A stretch of DNA of 64,000 bases from Escherichia coli (GCF_045037415.1 NZ_CP173438.1); one strand, 5' to 3'; positions 1 through 12,669 are shown, counted from the first letter of the stretch. The notes: a model not told the origin generated them from the sequence alone. Program-made: numbers and translations.

Positions 1-108
1 ACCAATGGCTGCGTCATGTTCTCTCCCCTGACTGGCTTTACTCAATAGTGGCATGCTATTGCCACCTACGCCTGTCAGAATTAACTTAAGTGTAGATAAA
101 AATTCTGG

Positions 109-1014
109 TCAAATGTTGGTGCGTACCAACGGCAAAAGTTCGTCCATTTTCTTTTCCACTGCCAGCTGTCCGGCCGCAATGGCAGCGTGCGCGCGATGGA
201 AATCAAGCGTAGATATTTGCGGGCAAACAGGTTGAATCAGAATATCGGGCGGATCACCTGCCATGCGGTTCCTTTTAAGGCGGTTCTCCAGCACCTGGAT
301 AGAAGTGGTCATAATCTCTGTTGCCGTTGGCGCTGTCACCGCCCGACGTGTCGTTATGCTGCCTAACCTTTCTTTCAGACGCGCATGCCACGGCAGAGAA
401 TCACCATTCTCGCTATTTTCTTCACTGACATTAAAGGAGAGCAAATCTTGTTGCATCAAATGAGCATCGTGCTGCAGGTCGACCGCTATCACAATATCAG
501 CCCCCAATGCACGCGTGAGGGAAATAGGAATTGGGTTAACTACAGCGCCATCAACCAGCCAGTAGCCGTTATGCGCAACGGGTGCCATTAGTCCTGGAAT
601 ACTGCATGATGCACGAATAGCAAGATGGAGATCGCCTTCAGTAAACCATAATTCACGCCCAGTACTTAAATTGGTGGCAACAGCCGCGAAGCGACGGGAA
701 CAATTTTCGATCTCTGTTTCCGGCATTATTTCGCGATATTGATTGAAGACACGCTCGCCGCGCAGTAACCCACCGCGCTGCCAGGAGAGATCCATCAGGC
801 GTAAAACATCCCAATAACTGAAAGAGGTCACCCAATCTTCCAGCGCAGATAATCGATCGCATGCATAGGCAGCGCCCACCAGCGAACCAATTGAACATCC
901 TGCAACGATATCAATTTCAATACCCACTTTTTTTAGCGCATTAATTACGCCAATATGCGACCAACCTCTTGCCGCGCCAGATCCCAGCGCCAGCCCTATT
1001 TTTATCTTTCTCAT
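109..1014 (-). CDS. rssA: patatin-like phospholipase RssA
   Basis: ORF 109..1053; from internal Met the product reads MRKIKIGLALGSGAARGWSHIGV with a GxSxG patatin motif (GCSIGS); matches E. coli RssA from memory; start set at Met14 of the ORF (301 aa). Confidence 0.85.
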   Translation of the reverse strand: MRKIKIGLALGSGAARGWSHIGVINALKKVGIEIDIVAGCSIGSLVGAAYACDRLSALEDWVTSFSYWDVLRLMDLSWQRGGLLRGERVFNQYREIMPETEIENCSRRFAAVATNLSTGRELWFTEGDLHLAIRASCSIPGLMAPVAHNGYWLVDGAVVNPIPISLTRALGADIVIAVDLQHDAHLMQQDLLSFNVSEENSENGDSLPWHARLKERLGSITTRRAVTAPTATEIMTTSIQVLENRLKRNRMAGDPPDILIQPVCPQISTLDFHRAHAAIAAGQLAVEKKMDELLPLVRTNI

Positions 1015-1126
1015 TATTCCCGCAAGATTCCCCTGGAATGCAATCGTAGCCACATCGCTACTGCTCGGTTAACATAGTGCTACTCAGGCGGTTAATACGC
1101 CGTTATTGTTTCCAGGGAGATTATTT

Positions 1127-1585
1127 GTGTCTCAGCTTTGTCCCTGTGGTAGTGCTGTCGAGTATAGCCTATGTTGCCACCCTTATGTGTCTGGTGAAAA
1201 GGTTGCACCTGATCCAGAACATCTCATGCGTTCGCGTTACTGCGCTTTTGTGATGCAAGACGCAGATTATTTAATAAAGACCTGGCATCCATCTTGTGGA
1301 GCAGCGGCGTTACGTGCCGAATTGATTGCCGGATTTGCGCATACTGAATGGTTGGGATTGACCGTATTTGAACATTGCTGGCAGGACGGCGGCGATATCG
1401 GATTTGTCAGTTTTGTTGCTCGATTTACCGAGGGTGGCAAAACAGGTGCAATAATTGAACGTTCGCGATTTTTGAAAGAAAACGGTCAATGGTACTATAT
1501 TGACGGTACACGTCCGCAGTTTGGCCGCAACGATCCCTGCCCTTGTGGTTCAGGTAAAAAATTTAAAAAGTGCTGCGGCCAATAA
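1127..1585 (+). CDS. ychJ: SEC-C motif protein YchJ (UPF0225)
   Basis: ORF 1106..1585; GTG start at 1127 gives (M)[17 protein letters not shown] metal-binding motifs at both termini (C-terminal [13 protein letters not shown]). Confidence 0.85.
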
Positions 1586-1634
1586 TGGTTGACGGTACGG
1601 TTTAGCAAACACTCTCAACAAGGTTTTTCCAGCA

Positions 1635-2477
1635 ATGCATTCACTCCAACGTAAAGTTCTGCGTACTATTTGTCCGGACCAAAAAGGTCTGATCGCACGT
1701 ATTACCAATATTTGCTACAAGCACGAGTTAAATATCGTGCAGAACAATGAATTTGTAGATCATCGTACCGGGCGCTTTTTTATGCGCACGGAACTGGAAG
1801 GGATTTTTAATGATTCCACCCTGCTGGCAGATCTCGATAGCGCATTGCCAGAAGGCTCCGTGCGTGAGCTGAATCCTGCCGGTCGTCGCCGGATAGTGAT
1901 TCTGGTCACTAAAGAAGCACATTGCCTTGGCGATTTGCTGATGAAAGCCAATTACGGCGGCCTGGATGTCGAAATCGCGGCAGTTATTGGTAACCACGAT
2001 AATTTACGTTCTCTGGTTGAGCGTTTTGATATTCCGTTTGAGCTGGTAAGCCATGAAGGGTTAAGCCGCAACGAGCACGATCAAAAGATGGCGGATGCCA
2101 TTGATGCTTATCAACCTGACTATGTGGTGCTGGCGAAGTATATGCGGGTATTAACGCCGGAATTTGTGGCTCGCTTCCCGAATAAGATCATCAATATTCA
2201 CCATTCCTTCCTGCCAGCGTTTATCGGCGCACGTCCTTATCACCAGGCCTATGAGCGTGGCGTGAAGATTATTGGCGCAACCGCTCACTATGTGAATGAC
2301 AATCTGGACGAAGGTCCAATCATCATGCAGGACGTTATTCATGTCGATCATACCTACACAGCTGAAGATATGATGCGCGCAGGTCGTGACGTCGAGAAAA
2401 ACGTCTTAAGTCGTGCGCTATACAAAGTACTGGCGCAGCGCGTCTTTGTTTACGGTAATCGGACGATTATTCTTTAA
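1635..2477 (+). CDS. purU: formyltetrahydrofolate deformylase
   Basis: 280-aa ORF MHSLQRKVLRTICPDQKGLIARITN (ACT domain) followed by a formyltransferase domain; matches PurU in sequence and position next to tyrT. Confidence 0.9.
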   Translation: MHSLQRKVLRTICPDQKGLIARITNICYKHELNIVQNNEFVDHRTGRFFMRTELEGIFNDSTLLADLDSALPEGSVRELNPAGRRRIVILVTKEAHCLGDLLMKANYGGLDVEIAAVIGNHDNLRSLVERFDIPFELVSHEGLSRNEHDQKMADAIDAYQPDYVVLAKYMRVLTPEFVARFPNKIINIHHSFLPAFIGARPYHQAYERGVKIIGATAHYVNDNLDEGPIIMQDVIHVDHTYTAEDMMRAGRDVEKNVLSRALYKVLAQRVFVYGNRTIIL

Positions 2478-2558
2478 TCGTCAGCCAAAATAACTGGTTA
2501 GCTTTAATCCGTTACGGATGAAAATCACGCAACCAGTTCATTTTTCTCAACGTAACAC

Positions 2559-2586
2559 TTTACAGCGGCGCGTCATTTGATATGAT
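2559..2586 (+). promoter_or_regulatory. tyrT promoter (-35 TTTACA, 16-bp spacer, -10 TATGAT, GC-rich discriminator)
   Basis: TTTACA at 2559-2564 and TATGAT at 2581-2586 followed by GCGCCCC, about 50 bp upstream of the mature tRNA 5' end; this is the classical stringently controlled tyrT promoter. Confidence 0.8.
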
Positions 2587-2636
2587 GCGCCCCGCTTCCC
2601 GATAAGGGAGCAGGCCAGTAAAAAGCATTACCCCGT

Positions 2637-2721
<85 letters not shown>

Positions 2722-2737
2722 TCACTCGATTCCATTA

Positions 2738-3829
2738 TCAAACCTTCGGCTTCTCCCCCATTCGCCGTAAAAACTGCTGCTGTAGCCTCAACAAATCCGC
2801 TAACGTCAACAACTGATAATCCAGACCTTGCTGGCTGGCAATTTGCGCAATAATGCGGCTTAGCGCCGAATAATGGCGATGATGCCAGTGAGGAAACAGA
2901 TGATGGGTAAGGTGCAGATTAATCCCACCCAGCCAGTAGCCAAGCCATGCAGGTTGCGGCGTCCAATCAAAGGTGGTAGCAAAGGTATGCGCCAGTCTGC
3001 CCACGGGCATTTTGCCCTCTTCTGGTGGTAACTGCGTATGTCCCTTCGCCCAGTGCGTTCCAATAATCAACGTCACAAAAATCAATGACGCCAGCAGCTG
3101 GCTGAGCAGATAAGTCAGCAGGATGGTCATAAAACTAAAATCAGACAAAAGCCAGGGAATTATCAGACACAGCGCACAATGCGCCAGTTTCCCGGCTAAG
3201 AAATATCCCCAGCCAGCAAAGCCTCGCAGGGCCAGATGTCGCGTGACCGGCGTAAACCCTGCGCGATCGAGCCAGTCCACTACCCAGATATACCAGGGAA
3301 AGGTGAGCGCGGCGACCAGTGGCCAATAGCGATGTTGCTGGCGCATAAAAGGTCGCCACCGTTGCCACGGCGTCTGGCGAAGAATGCCATTTTCTGCTGT
3401 ATCTGGATCGTAAAATTCAATATTGGTAAAACCGTGATGAAAGCGAACGTGGCGCACCCGCCAGCAGTCCGGATCTAGCCCCATAGGAAAAGCAACCCAC
3501 CGGTTAAGCCGGGCATTGGTCTTTTTACCACGCAAAAACGCATCATGCGAAGCGTCATGCACCACATTGACCGCTAACAACATGGCGCAAAACATCATCG
3601 CGAGATACCACAACAGATACAGTCCCCATTGACGTTGAAATAACGCCAGTAAGTAACAGGAGAAACAAGCAATAATCAACACCGCCATTTTGACGAATGC
3701 CCATCCGTCGGCATACCGATGATCGCCTGATTTCGCCAGATAAACTTTCGTACCGCTTTGCAGTTGTTTCACCAGTTGTGGATCATCGGCAGGAAAAGTG
3801 ATTAACCTGTCGGGATTAAACAGGTTCAT
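2738..3829 (-). CDS. membrane fatty-acid desaturase family protein
   Basis: 363-aa ORF with three histidine boxes (HDASHDAF, HVRFHHGF, HLTHHLFPHWHH) and several hydrophobic segments; last gene of the 7-gene operon. Confidence 0.7.
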   Translation of the reverse strand: MNLFNPDRLITFPADDPQLVKQLQSGTKVYLAKSGDHRYADGWAFVKMAVLIIACFSCYLLALFQRQWGLYLLWYLAMMFCAMLLAVNVVHDASHDAFLRGKKTNARLNRWVAFPMGLDPDCWRVRHVRFHHGFTNIEFYDPDTAENGILRQTPWQRWRPFMRQQHRYWPLVAALTFPWYIWVVDWLDRAGFTPVTRHLALRGFAGWGYFLAGKLAHCALCLIIPWLLSDFSFMTILLTYLLSQLLASLIFVTLIIGTHWAKGHTQLPPEEGKMPVGRLAHTFATTFDWTPQPAWLGYWLGGINLHLTHHLFPHWHHRHYSALSRIIAQIASQQGLDYQLLTLADLLRLQQQFLRRMGEKPKV

Positions 3830-4940
3830 ACTGTTTCCTTAGCGATTTACGTCCTACGCCGATTACAAATAACAGGCAATGGGCCAGCAGAATACCCACT
3901 AATCCCTTCCAGAGCAGAGTACTCCATGAACACATATAGACAATAAAATAGAGCAGTGACAACGTCACAGAGCACCACAAAATCATACCCCAATGCTGCC
4001 CGTCGCTCATGCCCCCCAGCGCAACGGAGCCTGCCGCCAGCAGAACAAATAATACGGCTTGCTCGCTGGTAATAAACTCAATGCCATAGCCATATTGTTG
4101 AATGTAGCCAAGCACCAGCATAAACAGCAGGATCACCCCTGCCCCTACCGCCCATGGAGAACTCTGGTAGCGACCTTCAATCGCTTTGCCAAATGAGCAA
4201 AAGCCCATTAAGCGTAAAAATGGCAGATTACTCTCGCGCATCGGGTTACAGGACAAGCGACTATTTTTTACGCCGTAGCCTACGTCGTATTCCGGCCCGG
4301 CACTATACGAACCGAAAAGTTTATCCCACAACAAAAAGGTGCCACCGTAATTGGTATCGGCATATTGCTTTTGATTCAGATGATGGACGCGATGATGCGA
4401 AGGCGTGATCAGCACTTTTTCCAGCCAGCCCAGTTTCGGCGTTAGTGCGTTATGGTTAAAAAATTGCCAACTATAGTGAATAATAGAAACCGCCAAAAAG
4501 ACCTGTAACGGCACACCAAGCATCGCCAGCAGCATAAAAAACGGGATTGAGGTTAACGAGGAGTACCACGAGTTCCGCACGCCTAATGACAGGTTGTAGT
4601 GTTCCCCCTGATGATGCACCACATGTACCGCCCACAGCGGGCGCATTTCGTGATGCCAGCGATGTAGCCAGTAAAAGCCGAAATCCCACGCCAGGATAGT
4701 AAACAACCACAGCAGGATCACCGGCACATTATCAAACAGTCCAAGGCTGAAGTGATTGACCACCAGGCCATAGCAGAGCACTTCCAGGCAGCGAAATAAC
4801 CACAGCATCATATGACCGGAGTTGATATTAAAAATAACGTCCAGCCAGTCCACTTTTTGCCGCCCGGTGAATTGCAACACGCCCGCTTCGGCTAACACCA
4901 ACAGCACCATCGATATGATGGGGAATAATAAATCACTCAT
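3816..4940 (-). CDS. fatty-acid hydroxylase / sterol desaturase superfamily membrane protein
   Basis: 374-aa ORF with histidine motifs HRWHHEMRPLWAVHVVHH and HHRVHH; overlaps both neighbouring genes. Confidence 0.7.
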   Translation of the reverse strand: MSDLLFPIISMVLLVLAEAGVLQFTGRQKVDWLDVIFNINSGHMMLWLFRCLEVLCYGLVVNHFSLGLFDNVPVILLWLFTILAWDFGFYWLHRWHHEMRPLWAVHVVHHQGEHYNLSLGVRNSWYSSLTSIPFFMLLAMLGVPLQVFLAVSIIHYSWQFFNHNALTPKLGWLEKVLITPSHHRVHHLNQKQYADTNYGGTFLLWDKLFGSYSAGPEYDVGYGVKNSRLSCNPMRESNLPFLRLMGFCSFGKAIEGRYQSSPWAVGAGVILLFMLVLGYIQQYGYGIEFITSEQAVLFVLLAAGSVALGGMSDGQHWGMILWCSVTLSLLYFIVYMCSWSTLLWKGLVGILLAHCLLFVIGVGRKSLRKQYEPV

Positions 4941-5535
4941 ATTGTGTCTTCCTTTTCTCGCATGTTGCGCATATCCAACCGCAAATCGACGCCAGCAACG
5001 CGCCGCCTACTAAATCGATAAATAAATGTCTGCGTAATTGCAGAATCGAAAAGGCGATTGCTATCGCCCAGACCACGCTCATTAGCGTCAGCCAACGGTT
5101 CCCCTTTTTAGCAATCGCCCATACCGCCAACAGCGTTAGCGCGGCGTGTAAGGAGGGAAAACAGTTCTGGCTTGAGTCAATGGCGATCAGCCTGTTGAGT
5201 GCGCCCGCGGATATCCCCATCTGATCAAACGAGGGATAATGCATGGTTGTGGGCCAGAGAAGATAAAATACGCCAGCCACCAGTGCGGAAATTTGCATTG
5301 AACGGGCCAGCCAGCGCAGGTGGCAAAGTGGCGTGGATAAATAACCTAACGGCACAATGAAAAAAAACGAGAGATACAGCCACACAGCGGAGGGGGAAAA
5401 CGCAATCAAATTATCAATTATTGACGGTGTTAATTGATATCCCTCACCTTGCAGGTAGTCGCTAAAGTTGTAGATAACCCCAACAGTTCCCCAGCCCAGC
5501 AGCATCTGTTTCAGGCGTAGCAGTGAATTGCTCAT
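4933..5535 (-). CDS. PAP2-like membrane phosphatase family protein
   Basis: ORF 4933..5697; likely start is the internal ATG at 5535 (MSNSLLRLKQ), which overlaps the upstream stop as ATGA; PAP2-like PSLH and RRHLFID motifs in a polytopic membrane protein. Confidence 0.55.
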   Translation of the reverse strand: MSNSLLRLKQMLLGWGTVGVIYNFSDYLQGEGYQLTPSIIDNLIAFSPSAVWLYLSFFFIVPLGYLSTPLCHLRWLARSMQISALVAGVFYLLWPTTMHYPSFDQMGISAGALNRLIAIDSSQNCFPSLHAALTLLAVWAIAKKGNRWLTLMSVVWAIAIAFSILQLRRHLFIDLVGGALLASICGWICATCEKRKTQYE

Positions 5536-6818
5536 TCCCGCCCCCACTGACGCACAATGCGCCGCCGCTTGGCTGTAAAAGAGACTGGCACAGTTTGCAG
5601 TTCCAGCGACCAAATTAATTGCCCGACAGCGATATCCTGGCGTATAAACAAGGCATTCAACGCCTCCCGGCAATGCTCCAGCATCCACAGCTCGCAATCG
5701 GCGATTAACGTCAATTGTGCTGACCCGGTTTGTAGCAGGCGATAATCGACTGTTAGCGGCAGTGTCATTGCCAGCACACGACTACAGGCATCGGCAAAAA
5801 CGGTCTGAATATCGCCGGATCTTGTTGGTAGTTGCAGTTGGTCATCCTGCCGCCCTTCGATACGCGCAATCGCCATTGTTGCACTGCCACAGGGGCATGG
5901 CTGTTCGCTTGCCACCAGCACATCATCCAGTCGATAACGCACTATCGGCTGTGTGGTGCGGGTAAAGTCTGTGACGATCGGCACGAAACGGTGCTCATCC
6001 AGCCATTGCGGTTCAATGTGAACAAACTCTTCGTTGAGATGTAACGTTCCACACCGGCAGGTGGAAGCGAGAAAGCCTTCTGTCGCCTGATAAATTTCCC
6101 CCACATTGTGGAACACGTTGCGCAGTAATTCCCGATCCTGCGGCTCCAGAACTTCCGCCACCGAAATCACTTTTTTGACCTTTAGCGTCAATTCGCCGGC
6201 CATCACCTCCAGCGCCAGTGCGCGTAATACCTGAGCTGGCGCGACAATAATCGTGGGCGCTCGCTGTTGGAGAAGTTTGAGTTGCGCCTGAAATGGCGCT
6301 AGCAGATCGTAAAAATCGAGACTTAACCAGCGATTATTCACGCTTTGATACAGGTTGTTGTCCGCGCGCAGAAACAGCGCCACCCGCTCTTTGGCAAATA
6401 AATCATCGGGCAACACTTTTGCCAGCACACCGGCGGCCCACATCTGTTGCTCGTGCGGGCTAACAACAAAAAGTCCACGACGCCCGGATGTACCTGATGA
6501 AAGCCCAACGCTGAACTTACCAACGCAGGGTTTGAAATCACGACTCTGCTCACTGCGCATTGCACAATCGAGAAGTTCGTCGCGCTTTAAACCTGCGGTA
6601 TTCATCTCATCGAAGTGCGTCATCATTAACGCTTTATCCATCATTGGCCACTGATTAAAGGGCAACGTCAGATAACGCTGAAACCACGGGCTATGAGATA
6701 AGACATTTTGCCGGAACTGATGCAGCCTTTTTGCCTGCCAGTTTTCCAGTGCCTCGCGATCGGTGAAATGCAGCCTGCGGGTACGGAAGTAGCGCCAGAT
6801 CAACATCAACGGGATCAT
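5532..6818 (-). CDS. adenylate-forming enzyme (PaaK / F390-synthetase-like acyl-CoA ligase)
   Basis: 428-aa ORF with an ANL-type phosphate-binding motif (SSGTSGRRG); size fits the PaaK-like subfamily; ATGA overlap with the upstream gene. Confidence 0.65.
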   Translation of the reverse strand: MIPLMLIWRYFRTRRLHFTDREALENWQAKRLHQFRQNVLSHSPWFQRYLTLPFNQWPMMDKALMMTHFDEMNTAGLKRDELLDCAMRSEQSRDFKPCVGKFSVGLSSGTSGRRGLFVVSPHEQQMWAAGVLAKVLPDDLFAKERVALFLRADNNLYQSVNNRWLSLDFYDLLAPFQAQLKLLQQRAPTIIVAPAQVLRALALEVMAGELTLKVKKVISVAEVLEPQDRELLRNVFHNVGEIYQATEGFLASTCRCGTLHLNEEFVHIEPQWLDEHRFVPIVTDFTRTTQPIVRYRLDDVLVASEQPCPCGSATMAIARIEGRQDDQLQLPTRSGDIQTVFADACSRVLAMTLPLTVDYRLLQTGSAQLTLIADCELWMLEHCREALNALFIRQDIAVGQLIWSLELQTVPVSFTAKRRRIVRQWGRE

Positions 6819-7621
6819 AAATCCCCCTCATGGCACAAACGAATCTCCACCACACCGTTTTGCCAAAGCTGATGGAGTTGCCCAAGCGTGTGGTAGTAGG
6901 CGTGGCTGTCGGACATAACCAGATGCGCCAGTGGTGAAGGCCCTCGCAGCTCCCGGTAGTTAGCTGGCGCCCATGCCGCATCGCCAGCCAGTAAAGTCCA
7001 GCCGTTGTCGGTTAACACAAACGCGCCAATATGTCCGGCAGCATGTCCTGGAAGCGGCACGAGAATAATTTCGCCATTGCTTTCTGGCAGCAAATAGCCG
7101 CACTCAAACGGTGCCAGTTGCGCGGGCAAATTCACCGATGCGAAACTTTCAATAAAGCGCAGTGAGGAGTCAAAATTCTCCGGGATTAGCCCTGGCACAA
7201 AGGCCTGGCGCAGCGCAGTGACACCACGCAGAGTTCTTACTTGCCGCCAGCCTTCACCAGAACAGATGCAGGAAACATCAGGGAAATCACGCAGGCCAGC
7301 AATATGATCAGCGTGAAAATGCGACAGAATAATCGCATCAACATCTTTCGCTGCGAGGCCGGTGGCAGAAAGTTGTCGCACCAGCGCCTGTTGCGGATCG
7401 AAATAAACCGGCGTGACCTGGCGATAAAGACGAAACACACCAGATTGCGTGTAGTGTTCGAACCACGATGAATAGCCTGTGTCCCACAGCCACCGTTTGT
7501 CGCCCACCTCCAGCAGCCAGGCGCGGGCGGGGAATTTGCACACTTTCAGCCCTGCCCCTTTCAGCGCAATACAGCTAATATGGGTACACCAGCCCGTTTC
7601 AAATGCGGTTATTTTTGCCAT
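6815..7621 (-). CDS. metallo-beta-lactamase-fold hydrolase
   Basis: 268-aa ORF with the HxHxDH zinc motif (ILSHFHADHIAG). Confidence 0.7.
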   Translation of the reverse strand: MAKITAFETGWCTHISCIALKGAGLKVCKFPARAWLLEVGDKRWLWDTGYSSWFEHYTQSGVFRLYRQVTPVYFDPQQALVRQLSATGLAAKDVDAIILSHFHADHIAGLRDFPDVSCICSGEGWRQVRTLRGVTALRQAFVPGLIPENFDSSLRFIESFASVNLPAQLAPFECGYLLPESNGEIILVPLPGHAAGHIGAFVLTDNGWTLLAGDAAWAPANYRELRGPSPLAHLVMSDSHAYYHTLGQLHQLWQNGVVEIRLCHEGDL

Positions 7622-8615
7622 GTTCCCTCAGCCATTGTCCCGTGATTGCAATACCTTGTTCCATCGAAAAGCGTGGGCGATATCCCAGCTCTGTAATGGC
7701 CTTTTGCGCACTCAGCGTCATATCGAAACAGAGTGTTCCGGCGCTGTATCGTGTGATAACAGGTTCCTGATTAACGCACTTCCCATACAGTTCCAGGCCA
7801 CGCGCGATCAGAGAAAGCAGCGACCAGGGAACAGCAGCAATGCGGTAACTCAAGCCCAGTTGCTGGTGCAGCAAGGCGTCAAGCATCACCGATAGCTGCT
7901 GCGGCTGGTGATTGCTGATGTTGTAAATACTGCCCGAGCGTAAGCCTTCAACGTTCGTTGCCAGCCGCATGGCATACACCACGTTTTGCACGAACGTGAG
8001 ATCCAATAACGCGTCGCCCCCGCGCGGCAAACGTAAGCAACCGCCGCCCTGTTGCAATTGCTGCATCAGACGAGGAACAATTACCTGGTCATGGGGGCCA
8101 AACAAACCACGGGGACGCAAAAGAATAAATCTCGTGGCAGAATATCGAGAAACAGCGCCAGCAATAACCTGCTCAGCGGCATATTTACTGCTGGCATAAT
8201 GGCTGGAGAATGCTCGCGCAAGATAAGTTTCTGGCAGGTCATAGTGATGTTGAAAATCAAAGTAAACCGCAGGCGTGGAGATATGGATAAACCGGGGAAT
8301 ATTCAGCCTGCCTGCCGCCTGTGCCAGAGTGTGGGTCACTTTGACATTGGCAAGCCAGAACGCCGTTTTGTCGCCCCAGGGCGAGGACTTTGCCGCACAG
8401 TGCCAGACGGCATCGCAGCCGTCCATCAGGCGGGCGCAGTCATCCTCGGTTGCCTCGGTTAAATCGAGAGCCACAAACTGTGCGCCTGCGTTTGTCAGGC
8501 TTCTGCCAACCTCACAATTTCGCCCTGTTGCCACAACCGACTCACCCGATTGCAACAAATATTGCACGGCATTTCGCCCAAGGCCGCTGGTCGCCCCTGT
8601 TACGAGGATCTTCAC
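7599..8615 (-). CDS. NAD(P)-dependent epimerase/dehydratase-family reductase (extended SDR)
   Basis: 338-aa ORF; N-terminal Rossmann motif MKILVTGATSGLGRN and catalytic YxxxK (YASSKYAAE). Confidence 0.75.
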   Translation of the reverse strand: MKILVTGATSGLGRNAVQYLLQSGESVVATGRNCEVGRSLTNAGAQFVALDLTEATEDDCARLMDGCDAVWHCAAKSSPWGDKTAFWLANVKVTHTLAQAAGRLNIPRFIHISTPAVYFDFQHHYDLPETYLARAFSSHYASSKYAAEQVIAGAVSRYSATRFILLRPRGLFGPHDQVIVPRLMQQLQQGGGCLRLPRGGDALLDLTFVQNVVYAMRLATNVEGLRSGSIYNISNHQPQQLSVMLDALLHQQLGLSYRIAAVPWSLLSLIARGLELYGKCVNQEPVITRYSAGTLCFDMTLSAQKAITELGYRPRFSMEQGIAITGQWLREHGKNNRI

Positions 8616-9655
8616 GGTAAAAGCACCATGCCAGCCAGCGTTAGTCCCGCTGCCGTGCCAATCAACATTACAGGTTTATCCGCTGTGAAACGACCGCTAA
8701 TCACTGCTTCATGCAGCGCCGTGGGGATAGAGGCCGCGACCTGATTGCCGTAAAAACGATACACATCGATGAGCGCAGATTCCGGCACTCGCAGCCGTTT
8801 ACGCATATGTTCAAGGGAAAGATGACTGGCCTGATGCGGAACGACCGTGCCGATATCAGACAGTTGCAGGCTGCTTTTTTGCAGCAACCGAGAAAAATAA
8901 TCTTCAATAAGCGAAGAAGCAAAACGAAACAGCGGTTTCCCCTGCATATGAAAAAGAAAGTCGCTATCACTCACACCAGAGCGAGGATTACGCCGCGTAC
9001 CGCCAGCACGAATTTCACACAGTTCGCTGCCTTCGGGATACATTTCGATCAGGCTAGCGATAATCCCGCTGCGCCCATCGCCCCGCTCAACAATCGCGCA
9101 CGCCGCGCCATCACCAAAAATTAATGAAGACTCTTCATGATCCCAGTCGATACCGCGTGAAGCAATATCTGCCGAAACGATGGCAATGCGTCGATATGCT
9201 CCACAGTTTAATAATCCGGCAGCGACTTCAAGAGCGGAAATAAAGCTCACACAGCTACTGTTGATATCAAACCCGGCAACGCCTACGGGCATGGCTGCGG
9301 CTTTAAGAATATGAATTGCGCTACAGGGTAATGCCTGTACGGCAATGGCCGATGCACAAATTAGCAGATCAATATCAGAAGGATTTAAGGCTGCCGCTAC
9401 TAACGCATTATGTAAAGCCTCTGCCGCCAGTTCGGCCTGGCTGGCGTCGTTGCGGGCAAAATAGCGCCAGCAAATACCGGAACGTCGCTCAACATAGCCA
9501 ACTGGCTTATTTAACTGAACATCCAGTTGTTTAGAAGTGATTTGATCAGGGGGTAAGGCGATCCCCGTGGCGATTATTTTTAACGCCGCGGAGATCGTCG
9601 GTTGATTAGGTCGAGCCACGGTCAGTGCTCCTTCACTGCTCCATAGGTGGACCAA
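8612..9655 (-). CDS. FabH-like (KAS III / thiolase-fold) condensing enzyme
   Basis: 347-aa ORF with FabH-like His and Asn regions (VPHQASHLSL, YGNQVAASIP) and a candidate nucleophile Cys (LICASAIAV); first gene of the operon, starting 90 bp downstream of the narI stop. Confidence 0.7.
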   Translation of the reverse strand: MVHLWSSEGALTVARPNQPTISAALKIIATGIALPPDQITSKQLDVQLNKPVGYVERRSGICWRYFARNDASQAELAAEALHNALVAAALNPSDIDLLICASAIAVQALPCSAIHILKAAAMPVGVAGFDINSSCVSFISALEVAAGLLNCGAYRRIAIVSADIASRGIDWDHEESSLIFGDGAACAIVERGDGRSGIIASLIEMYPEGSELCEIRAGGTRRNPRSGVSDSDFLFHMQGKPLFRFASSLIEDYFSRLLQKSSLQLSDIGTVVPHQASHLSLEHMRKRLRVPESALIDVYRFYGNQVAASIPTALHEAVISGRFTADKPVMLIGTAAGLTLAGMVLLP

Positions 9656-9714
9656 TCATATAGATGAAGTACGTTTCCCTACAATCCGAAAAATCGGCAG
9701 TGTGTAACCGCCGA

Positions 9715-9746
9715 TGTTTGGTTTAGATAATGTTTGGTTTAGATAA
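9715..9746. repeat. perfect tandem duplication of a 16-bp unit (TGTTTGGTTTAGATAA x2)
   Basis: Read directly: the unit at 9715-9730 is repeated at 9731-9746, ending immediately before the narI stop codon at 9747. Confidence 0.85.
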
Positions 9747-10424
9747 TTAGTGACGAGCGCGCACCAGCTGATACTTACGCGTCAGATACTCCACCGGGAC
9801 ACTCCAGATGTGTACCAGACGCGAGAACGGGAACAGCAGGAATAACGTCATCCCCAACACCAGGTGCAGACGGAAGATAAACGCCACGCCATCAAGATGT
9901 TGAGAAGCGCCACCGTGGAAGGTCACTACCGACTGCGCCCAGCCAACCAGTTTCATCATCTCGCTACCGTCCATATGCTGAGCAGAGAACGGAATGGTCA
10001 GCAGGCCCAGCGCGCACTGGATAACGAGCAGCGACAGGATCAGGATATCCGCTCCGGTAGTCGTTGCACGCACGCGTGGGCTGAACAGACGGCGTTTCAA
10101 CAACAGCACGCCGCCAATCAGACACAGTACGCCGCTGGCACCACCAGCAAACATCGCCATTTTCTGCTTCACTTCAATCGGCAGCCAGGCTTCATACATC
10201 CAGTGCGGCGTCAGCATACCGAAGAAGTGACCGACAAAAATCCCCAGAATACCGATATGGAACAGGTTCGACGCCAGATTCATCCCTTTGCGATCCAGCA
10301 TCTGGCTGGACGCCGCGCGCCAGGTATACTGCCCGTAGTCATAACGCAGCCAGCTACCAATCAGGAAGACCGCCCCGGCTATGTACGGGTAGATATCAAA
10401 GAAGAACATATTCAGGAATTGCAT
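9747..10424 (-). CDS. narI: respiratory nitrate reductase 1 gamma subunit
   Basis: 225-aa polytopic haem-b membrane protein; last gene of narGHJI. Confidence 0.9.
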
Positions 10425-11134
10425 TAGTGCTGTCCTCCGGTGGTGATATTCAGATATTGCGGCGCGACGGCACCGGCAAAGCGACGCTGATGAGCAGTGA
10501 TTGCTGAATCACCGCAGCCTTTGTCAGCAAAGAATTTAACCTGCTCTTCTTCCCAGACTGCATCCAGCGCCTGCGGCGTATCGTCGCGCGCTTCGTCGGC
10601 AATTTTTTCCGCCACTTTGTCGCTGTCGATTGCGGTATTCGCCAGTTTCAGCAGCAGATCAAACAGCACGGCATAACGGCTTTCACGCTGTTGCAGACGC
10701 GCACTCAGCAATGCCAGAATCGGCGCAATATCTTTCAAACCCTCCACGGCTTCGCTTTGCGGCAGCTGCGCCAGGTACTCCAGATACAGCGGCAGATGGT
10801 CGGGCAATTCGCGGCTGTTTAACTGCAAGCCGTGCTGCTCGTACTGCGCCAGCAGATCCACCATCGCCTGGCCGCGGTCACGGGATTCACCGTGAACATG
10901 TTCAAATAGCAACAGTGACGTGGCGCGGCCACGGTCGAACAGTTCGCTGTACTGCGCCTGGGCATCGAGCGGATCCATCGTCGTTAAATCGCGCAGGAAA
11001 ATGCCCAGCGCATGGGCATCCTCTTTTGGCAGATTTTTCGACGCGGCAATCGCCTCAAACATCTCTTGTTGATGCTGCCATAAGGCAGCATCCGGATATT
11101 CAAGGAGACGCGATACAATCACGAGTTCGATCAT
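10424..11134 (-). CDS. narJ: nitrate reductase 1 assembly chaperone
   Basis: 236-aa ORF coupled to narH and narI by overlapping stop/start codons. Confidence 0.9.
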
Positions 11135-12669
11135 GGGTGCGGCTCCGTTTTGCTGGTTACGTCGATGGCATCGATACGGCGGCTGTTGAACAGATTGAAT
11201 TTGGTATCTGAACCGTGGCAGCCATCACCAAAGGTAAAGCCGCAGCCATTTTTCTCCGGGAAGGCTTCCCGCGCCAGTTCACGATGACTGCTCGGCACCA
11301 CAAAGCGATCTTCGTAGTTGGCAATAGCCAGATAACGATACATCTCCTGTGCCTGGGCTTCGGTCAGACCGACCTCTTCCAGCGCACGGGTATCGACTTT
11401 ACCGTCAACGGTTTCAGCACGTTTGTAATGACGCATCGCCAGCATACGTTTCAGCGCGCGCAGTACCGGTTTGGTATCACCGGCGGTCAGCAGATTCGCC
11501 AGATACTGTACCGGAATACGCAGGCTTTCGACGTCTGGCAGAATGCCGTTGCTGCCCAGTTCACCCGCGTCTGCCGCAGACTGAATCGGCGACAGAGGCG
11601 GCACGTACCAGACCATCGGCAATGTGCGATATTCCGGATGCAGCGGCAGCGCCAGTTTCCATTCCATCGCCATTTTATAAACTGGCGACTGCTGCGCAGC
11701 CTCAATAACGCTCAGCGGAATACCGTCTTTAATCGCCTGCTCGATGACTTTCGGATCGTTCGGATCGAGGAACACATCCAGCTGACGCTGGTAGAGATCT
11801 TTCTCGTTCTCGGTACTTGCCGCACGTTCAATCGCGTCGGCATCGTACAGCAGCACGCCAAGATAACGGATACGACCGACACAGGTTTCTGAACATATTG
11901 TCGGCTGGCCGGCTTCAATACGCGGATAGCAGAAGATGCACTTCTCAGACTTACCGCTCTTCCAGTTGAAGTAGATTTTTTTGTACGGGCATCCGGTGAT
12001 GCACATACGCCAGCCACGGCATTTATCCTGGTCGATCAGGACGATGCCGTCTTCTTCACGCTTGTAAATCGCACCGCTCGGGCAGGTCGCCACACATGCC
12101 GGGTTCAGACAGTGTTCGCACAGGCGCGGCAAATACATCATGAAGGTGTTTTCGAACTGGCTATACATCGCCTTCTGGATGTTGTCGAAGTTCTTGTCTT
12201 TCGCCAGCTTGTCAAACTCACCGCCCAGGTCATCTTCCCAGTTCGGCCCTTTTTCGATTTTCGCCATCCGTTCGCCGGTAATCAGCGAACGCGGACGGGC
12301 AATCGGCTGTGATTTGCTGCCTTCCGGCGCGGTATGCAGGTTCTGATAATCAAAATCAAACGGCTCGTAATAATCGTCGATCCCCGGCAGATGCGGGTTA
12401 GCGAAGATTTTACCCAGCAGCATGGCACGGTTACCCATGCGCGGCTGCAGTTTGCCGTTGATTTTACGGATCCAGCCGCCTTTGTATTTTTCCTGGTTTT
12501 CCCAGTCAGTCGGGAAGCCCTGGCCCGGCTTGGTTTCCACGTTGTTGAACCACGCGTATTCCACGCCTTCACGGCTGGTCCAGACGTTTTTACAGGTCAC
12601 TGAACAGGTGTGGCAGCCGATGCACTTATCGAGATTCAGCACCATGCCGACTTGTGAACGAATTTTCAT
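11131..12669 (-). CDS. narH: respiratory nitrate reductase 1 beta subunit (Fe-S)
   Basis: 512-aa ORF with multiple ferredoxin-type Cys clusters (CIGCHTCSVTC, CEHCLNPACVATCP). Confidence 0.95.
   Translation of the reverse strand: MKIRSQVGMVLNLDKCIGCHTCSVTCKNVWTSREGVEYAWFNNVETKPGQGFPTDWENQEKYKGGWIRKINGKLQPRMGNRAMLLGKIFANPHLPGIDDYYEPFDFDYQNLHTAPEGSKSQPIARPRSLITGERMAKIEKGPNWEDDLGGEFDKLAKDKNFDNIQKAMYSQFENTFMMYLPRLCEHCLNPACVATCPSGAIYKREEDGIVLIDQDKCRGWRMCITGCPYKKIYFNWKSGKSEKCIFCYPRIEAGQPTICSETCVGRIRYLGVLLYDADAIERAASTENEKDLYQRQLDVFLDPNDPKVIEQAIKDGIPLSVIEAAQQSPVYKMAMEWKLALPLHPEYRTLPMVWYVPPLSPIQSAADAGELGSNGILPDVESLRIPVQYLANLLTAGDTKPVLRALKRMLAMRHYKRAETVDGKVDTRALEEVGLTEAQAQEMYRYLAIANYEDRFVVPSSHRELAREAFPEKNGCGFTFGDGCHGSDTKFNLFNSRRIDAIDVTSKTEPHP

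Follow-up and report, generated by a model that had tools for sequence, protein, structure and literature searches.

An ancient, uncharacterized lipid-type biosynthetic operon between narI and tyrT of Escherichia coli

Several described systems come close to the locus studied here. OleABCD unites a thiolase-fold condensing enzyme (OleA), a 3-beta-HSD-type reductase (OleD), an ATP-dependent adenylating enzyme (OleC, an ANL-type beta-lactone synthetase), and an alpha/beta-hydrolase (OleB). MxnB and CorB form the pyrones of myxopyronin and corallopyronin, and PqsABCDE brings a coenzyme A (CoA)-ligase-type activator, a FabH-like condensing enzyme, and a metallo-beta-lactamase (MBL)-fold hydrolase together in one operon. 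The tailoring of sphingolipids involves PAP2-fold enzymes such as Aur1 and SMSr, hydroxylases and desaturases such as Sur2, Scs7, and Des1, and glycosyltransferases of GT21, the glucosylceramide-synthase family. Here, we analyze a 64,000-nucleotide stretch of Escherichia coli DNA (GCF_045037415.1, NZ_CP173438.1; the window), in which positions 2738 to 9655 hold a seven-gene operon for a FabH-like beta-ketoacyl-acyl carrier protein synthase III (KAS III), a short-chain dehydrogenase/reductase (SDR), an MBL-fold hydrolase, an adenylating enzyme, a PAP2 protein, a hydroxylase, and a desaturase. A first-pass annotation, made from the sequence alone, had likened this set to head-to-head olefin, dialkylresorcinol/pyrone, and alkylquinolone pathways. 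The likeness holds at the level of enzyme classes and not as family membership, which fails on defining features of those systems.

We conclude that the operon is a real, ancient, functional, and uncharacterized lipid-type pathway in clinically important E. coli, and that it probably builds an unusual membrane lipid. Full-text literature searches returned no paper characterizing the cluster and no product assigned to it; a paper on the Pbo cluster of Pseudomonas syringae proved to be unrelated.

A coupled operon with a fixed core and exchangeable tails

Positions 2738 to 9655 are filled by seven co-directional minus-strand open reading frames (ORFs) (Table 1). Their count, order, and enzyme families, as described in the first-pass annotation, were confirmed by ORF calls, by profile searches, and by the RefSeq annotation of an identical E. 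coli genome, which has the same seven genes. All six gene junctions overlap, by 4, 23, 4, 4, 8, and 14 nt, and the ORFs are therefore a real, translationally coupled operon rather than chance ORFs. Two starts had to be corrected: KAS III begins at GTG 9619 instead of TTG 9655, in agreement with RefSeq and all orthologues, and PAP2 at ATG 5535 instead of TTG 5697. Because of the former, the gap to the narI stop codon, first put at about 90 nt, is 127 nt. All seven genes are intact and under purifying selection, with ratios of nonsynonymous to synonymous divergence (dN/dS) of 0.07 to 0.2 against Escherichia fergusonii and Escherichia albertii. Window positions 2500 to 9900 are 100% identical to many complete ST131-type E. 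coli genomes.

Across many bacterial lineages, the first four genes stay together as a fixed cassette. The family of the adenylating enzyme, hereafter F390, comprises 503 representative clusters at E≤1e-30, and we compared gene content by tblastn at 80 loci, one genome per species. KAS III, SDR, MBL, and F390 are collinear in almost all of these ~80 species, among them Enterobacterales, Pseudomonas, Burkholderiales, Neisseriales, Pasteurellaceae, Orbales, one Xanthomonadales genome, Paenibacillus, Brevibacillus, and a Saccharibacteria metagenome-assembled genome (MAG). The last is an exception to the order, in that KAS III follows the adenylating gene rather than coming first. In metagenomic relatives at 40 to 45% identity, the MBL and adenylating genes still occur as a pair, with the full set of four present in one relative. 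Natural fusions of MBL with F390 and of PAP2 with F390, together with a Massilia MAG in which one 1033-amino-acid (aa) ORF (our own ORF call) spans SDR, MBL, and F390, indicate that the enzymes are functionally tied together.

The core is joined by one of two tails, by both, or by neither, depending on the genome. Tail A, the one present in E. coli, consists of PAP2, hydroxylase, and desaturase, with or without a second desaturase. Tail B comprises an OleD-like SDR, a GT21 glycosyltransferase, an unknown protein of ~190 aa (X186), and a GT1 glycosyltransferase. Dyella, the Xanthomonadales representative, carries the full core with PAP2 and the hydroxylase. In a simple hydropathy scan, the four core proteins of E. 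coli look soluble and the three tail proteins polytopic. Less often, genomes add an ATP-grasp ligase, placed within or behind the core, a C-A-T module of a nonribosomal peptide synthetase (NRPS), a GT4 lipid glycosyltransferase, or a LysE exporter. The ATP-grasp gene (NCBIfam PRK06849, annotated as "hypothetical protein") lies within the four-gene core in Haemophilus sputorum (positions 4938 to 11302 of the locus) and Brevibacillus (417 to 5801); H. sputorum has, beside it, another unknown gene (376 aa), and its operon comes immediately after lptD.

Table 1. Positions of the operon genes and neighboring features in the window
Feature	Position	Strand	Details
Gene 1, FabH-like KAS III condensing enzyme	8612..9619	-	335 aa, GTG start
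Gene 2, extended SDR/3-beta-HSD-type reductase	7599..8615	-	338 aa
Gene 3, MBL-fold hydrolase, AiiA-type lactonase clade	6815..7621	-	268 aa
Gene 4, TIGR02304 "F390 synthetase-related" PaaK-like adenylate-forming enzyme	5532..6818	-	428 aa
Gene 5, PAP2_3 polytopic membrane protein, Aur1/SMS-like	4933..5535	-	200 aa, ATG 5535
Gene 6, fatty-acid-hydroxylase-superfamily di-iron membrane enzyme with extra C-terminal region of four transmembrane segments	3816..4940	-	374 aa
Gene 7, FA_desaturase-family di-iron membrane enzyme	2738..3829	-	363 aa
Shine-Dalgarno sequence GAAGGAG	9628..9634	-	8 nt upstream of GTG 9619; from sequence; kept in Escherichia and Enterobacter
Candidate sigma-70 promoter	9655..9684	-	TTGTAG (9684-9679), 18-nt spacer, TATGAT (9660-9655); hand-read
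Hairpin	9689..9715	-	9-bp stem, 5-nt loop, U4 run, 32 nt past the narI stop; from sequence and folding
narI, last gene of narGHJI	9747..10424	-	Stop codon is the right edge of K-12 homology; ORF calls, RefSeq, alignment
tRNA-Tyr (tyrT)	2637..2721	+	Left edge of K-12 homology; ARAGORN, Rfam

The enzymes and the systems they resemble

Alignments of 79 to 88 orthologues show conserved catalytic residues in all four core enzymes. KAS III matches NCBIfam PRK07204 with 332 bits and falls below the cut-off of every FabH model (332 versus 402, 210 versus 249, and 193 versus 292 bits). It shares 28% identity with E. coli FabH, whose Cys-His-Asn triad aligns with Cys123, His262, and Asn292, conserved in 79 orthologues; judged by sequence, it is a subfamily paralogous to the housekeeping FabH. 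Its best solved relatives are MxnB (4v2p, E 3e-49) and CorB (4yuc, E 8e-45), followed by FabHs (E 1e-42). The margin over true FabHs is thus small, and the operon differs from the MxnB/CorB systems in its genomic context and in having neither a polyketide synthase/NRPS line nor a carrier protein. Leu97 of KAS III aligns with FabH Phe87, the position occupied in OleA by Glu117. Chain-joining enzymes of the OleA/PpyS type have a catalytic Glu here, which in OleA comes from the partner subunit and serves a non-decarboxylative condensation; no conserved Glu lies nearby in the 79 orthologues.

The best NCBIfam matches of the SDR are two models of OleD, the 2-alkyl-3-oxoalkanoate reductase, but the scores, 152 and 146 bits, fall far short of the cut-off (580); its TGxxGxxG motif and Ser113, Tyr140, and Lys144 are conserved in 79 orthologues. 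The MBL protein keeps a complete dinuclear metal site (HxHxDH 101-106, H193, D214, H264) and an N-terminal motif, C12-x-H14-xx-C17. Its AlphaFold2 model (pLDDT 91.6) is nearest in fold to AiiA, AhlX, GcL, and 4-pyridoxolactonase: the top 50 Foldseek matches in the PDB are mostly N-acyl homoserine lactone (AHL) lactonases, pyridoxo-lactonases, and MPH-type relatives, with TM-scores of about 0.75, and neither PqsE nor glyoxalase II is among these 50. Lactonases are also its best profile matches, at no more than 56 bits, all far under the model cut-offs. The adenylating enzyme matches TIGR02304 over its full length (748.5 bits, cut-off 251.9), and this score assigns it to the TIGR02304 adenylate-forming enzymes. 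Its P-loop SSGTSG, the motifs YQATEG and GRxDD, and Lys417 are conserved, as is a further set of Cys254, His260, Cys308, and Cys310; sequence matches in the PDB are weak and point to PaaK-type ligases.

Set against OleABCD, the operon has the same four kinds of enzyme, including an ATP-dependent adenylating enzyme and a 3-beta-HSD-type reductase, but its hydrolase has the MBL fold and none of the seven proteins is an alpha/beta-hydrolase. Its adenylating enzyme is TIGR02304/PaaK-like rather than of the ANL type of OleC, the SDR stays far under the OleD cut-off, KAS III lacks the catalytic Glu of OleA, and the core leads into head-group-adding membrane enzymes. Membership in OleABCD is rejected on the OleA-type Glu, OleB, and OleC features. 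The operon also has the activator, condensing enzyme, and MBL hydrolase of PqsABCDE, whereas it has a single KAS III gene, no PqsB or PqsC, and an SDR; its MBL is nearest AiiA-type lactonases and not PqsE, its ligase is not PqsA-like, and there is no link to anthranilate. Membership in PqsABCDE fails on the PqsE-type MBL, PqsBC, and the anthranilate-CoA ligase.

A naming precedent comes from Xanthomonas, the UniRef name of the E. coli MBL being "GumP-like." There, gumO encodes a KAS III and gumP a metal-dependent hydrolase; with chd2 beside them, they lie downstream of the xanthan gum operon, and the papers describe their involvement in making xanthan as undemonstrated (PMC2585010, PMC5554336). 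Compared by names and descriptions, gumO, chd2 (an SDR by its name), and gumP appear to be the KAS III, SDR, and MBL of the same core, a precedent for the name and not for the function.

The tail proteins belong to PAP2_3 (PF14378), FA_hydroxylase (PF04116), and FA_desaturase (PF00487), and their catalytic residues are conserved in the three tail alignments. In PAP2, the C2 motif (PSLH130) and the C3 motif (R169-H170-xxx-D174) are invariant and form the H-H-D triad, while C1 (KxxxxxxRP) is absent from the alignment. Its AlphaFold2 model (pLDDT 94.7) has as its top three Foldseek matches inositol phosphorylceramide (IPC) synthase (9vj4), Aur1-Kei1 (9ivc), and human SMSr (8ijq); the phosphatases LpxE, LPP1, and PgpB rank below. 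Some source annotations name it "inositol phosphorylceramide synthase." By motifs and predicted fold, it fits the Aur1/IPC-synthase/sphingomyelin-synthase group of PAP2_3, with a predicted transferase activity.

The best NCBIfam match of the hydroxylase is OlsE (67 bits, residues 71 to 215). Its His boxes, H93xxHH97, H106xxHH110, and H183xxHH187, are invariant, and eight overlapping 19-residue windows are hydrophobic. Outside the OlsE-matched stretch, residues of about 250 to 374 (window 3816 to 4190) form a conserved extra region of ~120 residues, without a family assignment, that has four hydrophobic segments, invariant F273, Y279, and W322, and a nearly invariant H354. The desaturase matches PF00487 (E 2e-23), as do 27 of 27 members, and keeps invariant His boxes H91DxxH95, H127xxxHH132, and H306xxHH310; source annotations call it "acyl-CoA desaturase." A sequence search of solved structures gave no match for hydroxylase or desaturase and only a marginal LpxE match for PAP2. 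Both FA_hydroxylase and FA_desaturase are O2-dependent di-iron families.

These features recall sphingolipid tailoring: PAP2 is a PAP2_3 protein with the H-H-D triad, without C1, and with a fold nearest IPC synthase, Aur1, and SMSr; hydroxylase and desaturase share superfamilies with Sur2/Scs7 and Des1; and the alternative tail has a GT21 enzyme. The operon differs in having no serine palmitoyltransferase or other pyridoxal phosphate (PLP) enzyme and no ceramide synthase, and the similarity to eukaryotic enzymes is at the superfamily level only. Serine palmitoyltransferase and ceramide synthase were not found in the operon or up to 10 kb away at the ~80 loci, in a search with 12 chosen proteins and, for nine loci, Pfam lists. 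Canonical sphingolipid synthesis, bacterial or eukaryotic, is rejected, as neither of its defining enzymes was found in this search.

Ancestry of the locus and its junction with nar

The operon lies between narI and a single tRNA-Tyr gene, beyond which purU follows. The two breaks in homology to K-12 coincide with the 3' end of the tRNA (2722) and the stop codon of narI (9747), and K-12 carries 177 unrelated bp in place of the ~7-kb cluster; tblastx and blastn of this spacer against the cluster gave chance matches only. The first-pass annotation was right that K-12 has only ychS, tpr, and the tyrT/tyrV tRNAs here and no counterpart of this lipid/polyketide-like operon; the K-12 order is narI-ychS-rttR/tpr-tyrV-tyrT-purU. 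K-12 ychS (1710 to 1985 of the fetched K-12 locus) lies inside tandem rtT repeats bearing copies of the tRNA-Tyr 3' end, and it looks like a by-product of these repeats, not a gene or a cluster remnant.

The operon had also been described as inserted between the tRNA and narI, which does not hold. The interval from narI to purU holds these seven genes in E. fergusonii and E. albertii as well, source records also place them in Escherichia marmotae and further Escherichia clades, and Enterobacter cloacae has an 11-gene version between narI and purU. The synonymous divergence (dS) of the seven genes from E. fergusonii and E. albertii equals that of the flanking narI and purU, and their GC content (0.48 to 0.55) is that of the flanks. 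The shared locus, the flank-like dS, and the host-like GC show that the cluster is ancestral and was lost in K-12-type strains. The parsimonious reading of these sequence comparisons is an ancestral enterobacterial cluster that lost four genes in Escherichia and the rest in most E. coli. A tRNA-linked genomic island is ruled out by the same observations together with the lack of an integrase among the gene calls of the window and in the RefSeq annotation.

Among complete E. coli genomes, 673 of 5426 have the cluster, which is present all or none, and 4739 have the K-12-type empty site. Two of the 674 places that match the cluster interior are on records classed as plasmids. In strain AST20, NarI, PurU, and RssA match the ST131 or Nissle 1917 proteins exactly, yet the site is empty, so that the polymorphism exists also in an ST131/Nissle-type flanking background; a reading of the cluster as a B2-specific marker is rejected on this ground.

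Nissle 1917 holds tyrT, tyrV, RtT, and the seven-gene cluster all together. The cluster hence does not replace tyrV/tpr, and the ST131 allele has merely collapsed its tRNA/rtT repeats. The repeat number at the tyrT locus varies: one tRNA-Tyr and no RtT in this window (2637 to 2737), two tRNA-Tyr and one RtT in Nissle, two tRNAs and about three rtT repeats in K-12, and two tRNAs and four RtT in AST20. The convergent tyrT gene ends 16 nt away from the stop codon of the desaturase gene, which its trailer transcript can therefore be expected to enter in antisense orientation. Rfam searches over positions 1 to 12000 of the window gave only the tRNA as a structured RNA, and PADLOC gave no meaningful match to anti-phage defense.

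At the other end, the hairpin that follows narI is likely the nar operon terminator. It is also present in Nissle 1917 and E. fergusonii, and Enterobacter, Superficieibacter, and Citrobacter gillenii have canonical terminators with strong GC stems and T8 runs at the same place; in every nar-adjacent genome, the spacer has a terminator-like hairpin. Past it lies a candidate promoter. Both were read by hand and then checked across species, the hairpin also by folding, as a consensus scan had called neither (in the hairpin, part of the U run belongs to the stem; in the promoter, the -35 element matches at 3 of 6 positions). In a comparison of Escherichia with Enterobacter cloacae, the blocks GATTGT, CTATGATT, and AGTGAAGGAGCACTG are conserved and the intervening spacers differ; the blocks coincide with the -35-like GATTGT, the -10 TATGAT, and the Shine-Dalgarno sequence. 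A putative weak promoter of the operon's own, just past the nar terminator, is part of the reading favored below.

Right after the narI stop, a perfect 16-bp tandem duplication, TTATCTAAACCAAACA twice, occupies positions 9715 to 9746 on the minus strand; it shares its final base with the start of the hairpin stem, and the repeat is single-copy in Nissle 1917 and E. fergusonii. In E. albertii, the spacer between narI and KAS III (6937 to 7200 of the fetched locus) is 265 nt long, enlarged by strongly folding palindromic REP-like elements, and its terminal ~90 nt keep a hairpin remnant and the promoter-like blocks.

The adjacency of narI and KAS III was seen in 13 fetched loci from five Enterobacterales genera (Escherichia, Enterobacter, Superficieibacter, Citrobacter [C. 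gillenii], and Serratia) and nowhere else in the locus set. In most cluster-bearing species, including Yersinia, Pectobacterium, Pseudomonas, beta-proteobacteria, and Firmicutes, the cluster lies away from nar, and the adjacency is best read as retained synteny.

What the operon may make

The explanation that we favor, tentatively and at a little less than an even chance, is a functional, vertically inherited operon for a specialized lipid, with a hydroxylated, unsaturated, phospholipid-like product. We infer the reactions from family resemblance and gene context. KAS III would carry out a Claisen condensation, forming a new C-C bond from acyl-CoA or acyl carrier protein thioesters of primary metabolism, and either elongate one chain or join two, as MxnB and CorB do. 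The OleD-like SDR would reduce the beta-keto group to a beta-hydroxyl, and the lactonase-type MBL would release or open an ester, lactone, or thioester to give a free acid. The PaaK/F390-like enzyme may then reactivate this acid as an acyl-adenylate for a hand-over at the membrane, where, in E. coli, the Aur1/SMS-like PAP2 would add or exchange a phospho-head group on the lipid hydroxyl. Hydroxylation and desaturation of the chain or chains would fall to the two O2-dependent di-iron enzymes. In other species, the glycosyltransferase tail would replace or supplement these steps and turn the same core product into a glycolipid. In E. coli, the predicted product is an inner-membrane phospholipid that would bear hydroxyl groups and double bonds, perhaps on two chains as in a ceramide, and that would form under aerobic or microaerobic conditions.

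Since the tail enzymes, GT21 included, all have counterparts in sphingolipid tailoring, they suggest, by analogy, a ceramide-like hydroxy-lipid as the acceptor. Without serine palmitoyltransferase, such an acceptor would need a Claisen-condensation route. We speculate that the core could be just this, a PLP-independent route to a ceramide-like two-chain hydroxy lipid that receives its head group from PAP2 or GT21 and Sur2- and Des1-like tailoring, although we hold this to be quite unlikely. If true, it would mean that ST131, CFT073, and Nissle 1917 make unrecognized sphingolipid-mimicking membrane lipids, a class that would also occur in Yersinia, Serratia, P. syringae, Burkholderiales, and some Firmicutes.

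Several observations weigh against the favored phospholipid-like product. With the exception of TIGR02304, the family scores are far below curated cut-offs, and the fold match of PAP2 is moderate (TM 0.5 to 0.6). The operon has no genes for an acyl carrier protein, an acyltransferase, or a carboxylate reductase, which leaves the link from the adenylate to the PAP2 acceptor unexplained. The FabH-type triad, with Leu97 in place of the catalytic Glu of OleA- and PpyS-type enzymes, makes simple elongation as likely as chain joining. The ATP-grasp, NRPS, and LysE genes of some relatives better fit a smaller, exported, amino-acid-conjugated product. Finally, the candidate promoter, on which the consensus scan made no call, is weak, with a -35 element matching in 3 of 6 positions.

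Other products and roles have to be weighed on the same evidence. In an Ole-like head-to-head pathway, KAS III would take the part of OleA and the SDR that of OleD; the adenylating enzyme would be a beta-lactone synthetase like OleC, and the lactonase-type MBL would stand in for OleB. The outcome, to be modified by hydroxylase and desaturase, would be a 2-alkyl-3-hydroxy acid, or else a beta-lactone or long-chain olefin. The four-enzyme analogy (condensing enzyme, reductase, adenylating enzyme, and hydrolase), the OleD models as the two best SDR family matches, the OleD-like second SDR of tail B, an MBL within a lactone-hydrolyzing clade, and the chain-joining activity of the nearest solved KAS III relatives all point this way. 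We nonetheless consider this pathway unlikely: the SDR reaches 152 bits where 580 are needed, OleB is missing, the adenylating enzyme is of the PaaK/F390 type and not the OleC type, Leu97 occupies the position of the catalytic OleA Glu, and an olefin would offer no hydroxyl to the PAP2 or glycosyltransferases downstream of the core. The nearness of KAS III to the pyrone-forming MxnB and CorB, and of the MBL to quorum-quenching lactonases, could instead indicate a diffusible signal or antibiotic-type small molecule (a pyrone, dihydropyranone, alkylquinolone-like compound, or lactone) rather than a structural lipid; the MBL would then be a lactonase for processing or self-resistance, and the membrane enzymes would do the tailoring. 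The trio of ligase, KAS III, and MBL recalls PqsA, PqsD, and PqsE, and it is here that the ATP-grasp ligase, NRPS module, and LysE-type exporter of some relatives fit. Such a molecule is also improbable, given that genes for an exporter, a regulator, or a receptor are missing from the E. coli operon, that three of its seven products are polytopic membrane enzymes of lipid modification, that the alternative tail consists of lipid-type glycosyltransferases, and that PAP2 is nearest ceramide phosphotransferases and the MBL is not nearest PqsE.

The position of the operon could mean that it serves nitrate respiration, cotranscribed with narGHJI under FNR/NarL, as the first-pass annotation had suggested, and remodeling membrane lipids during anaerobic growth on nitrate. 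It is on the same strand, 127 nt past narI, the adjacency is retained in the 13 fetched loci, and the U run of the E. coli hairpin is short, so that partial read-through from nar may occur in E. coli. Read-through as the designed control is unlikely because of the terminator hairpin, the conserved promoter-like footprint, and the O2-dependent enzymes: narG is induced anaerobically, whereas the hydroxylase and desaturase families need O2. With a terminator-like hairpin in every nar-adjacent genome, a strong GC stem and T8 in three genera, and the cluster not beside nar in Yersinia, Pectobacterium, Pseudomonas, beta-proteobacteria, or Firmicutes, we rate a nar accessory role as very unlikely. 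An ordinary modification of fatty acids or phospholipids, for example, aerobically made unsaturated or hydroxylated chains primed by an alternative FabH, has an equally slight chance. It would suit a FabH-like KAS III with the full decarboxylative triad, families of desaturase and hydroxylase that commonly act on acyl-lipids, and the "acyl-CoA desaturase" of the source records, but it leaves unexplained the coupling of SDR, lactonase-type MBL, and adenylating enzyme, fusions included, the swap of the tail for glycosyltransferases, and the Aur1/SMS-like PAP2.

Intact copies of the operon occur in E. coli of medical prominence, namely, the ST131 type and the CFT073/Nissle 1917 (ST73) lineage, and also in E. 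albertii. Its absence from K-12 and from ~87% of complete E. coli genomes means that the lipid biochemistry of laboratory E. coli has never covered it. The core is common to hundreds of protein clusters in Proteobacteria and Firmicutes, including those of Yersinia pestis, Serratia, Pectobacterium, P. syringae, and bee-gut symbionts. If the product were identified, TIGR02304 would gain a function, the repertoire of E. coli would grow by a lipid, or a molecule derived from one, whose synthesis would call for O2-dependent desaturation and hydroxylation, and the presence or absence of the operon would become a marker that may bear on host interaction.

The sharp polymorphism in a lineage with B2-type flanking proteins and the apparent natural knock-outs by insertion sequence or truncation make the operon directly testable. 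In FXCREC145 (NZ_CM135823.1), an IS30-like ISApl1 transposase is annotated inside the cluster and the sterol-desaturase name is absent from the feature list, and strain S7 (NZ_CP107128.1) keeps ~70% of the cluster, the desaturase end being gone. Both look like natural disrupted alleles and are potential natural knock-outs.

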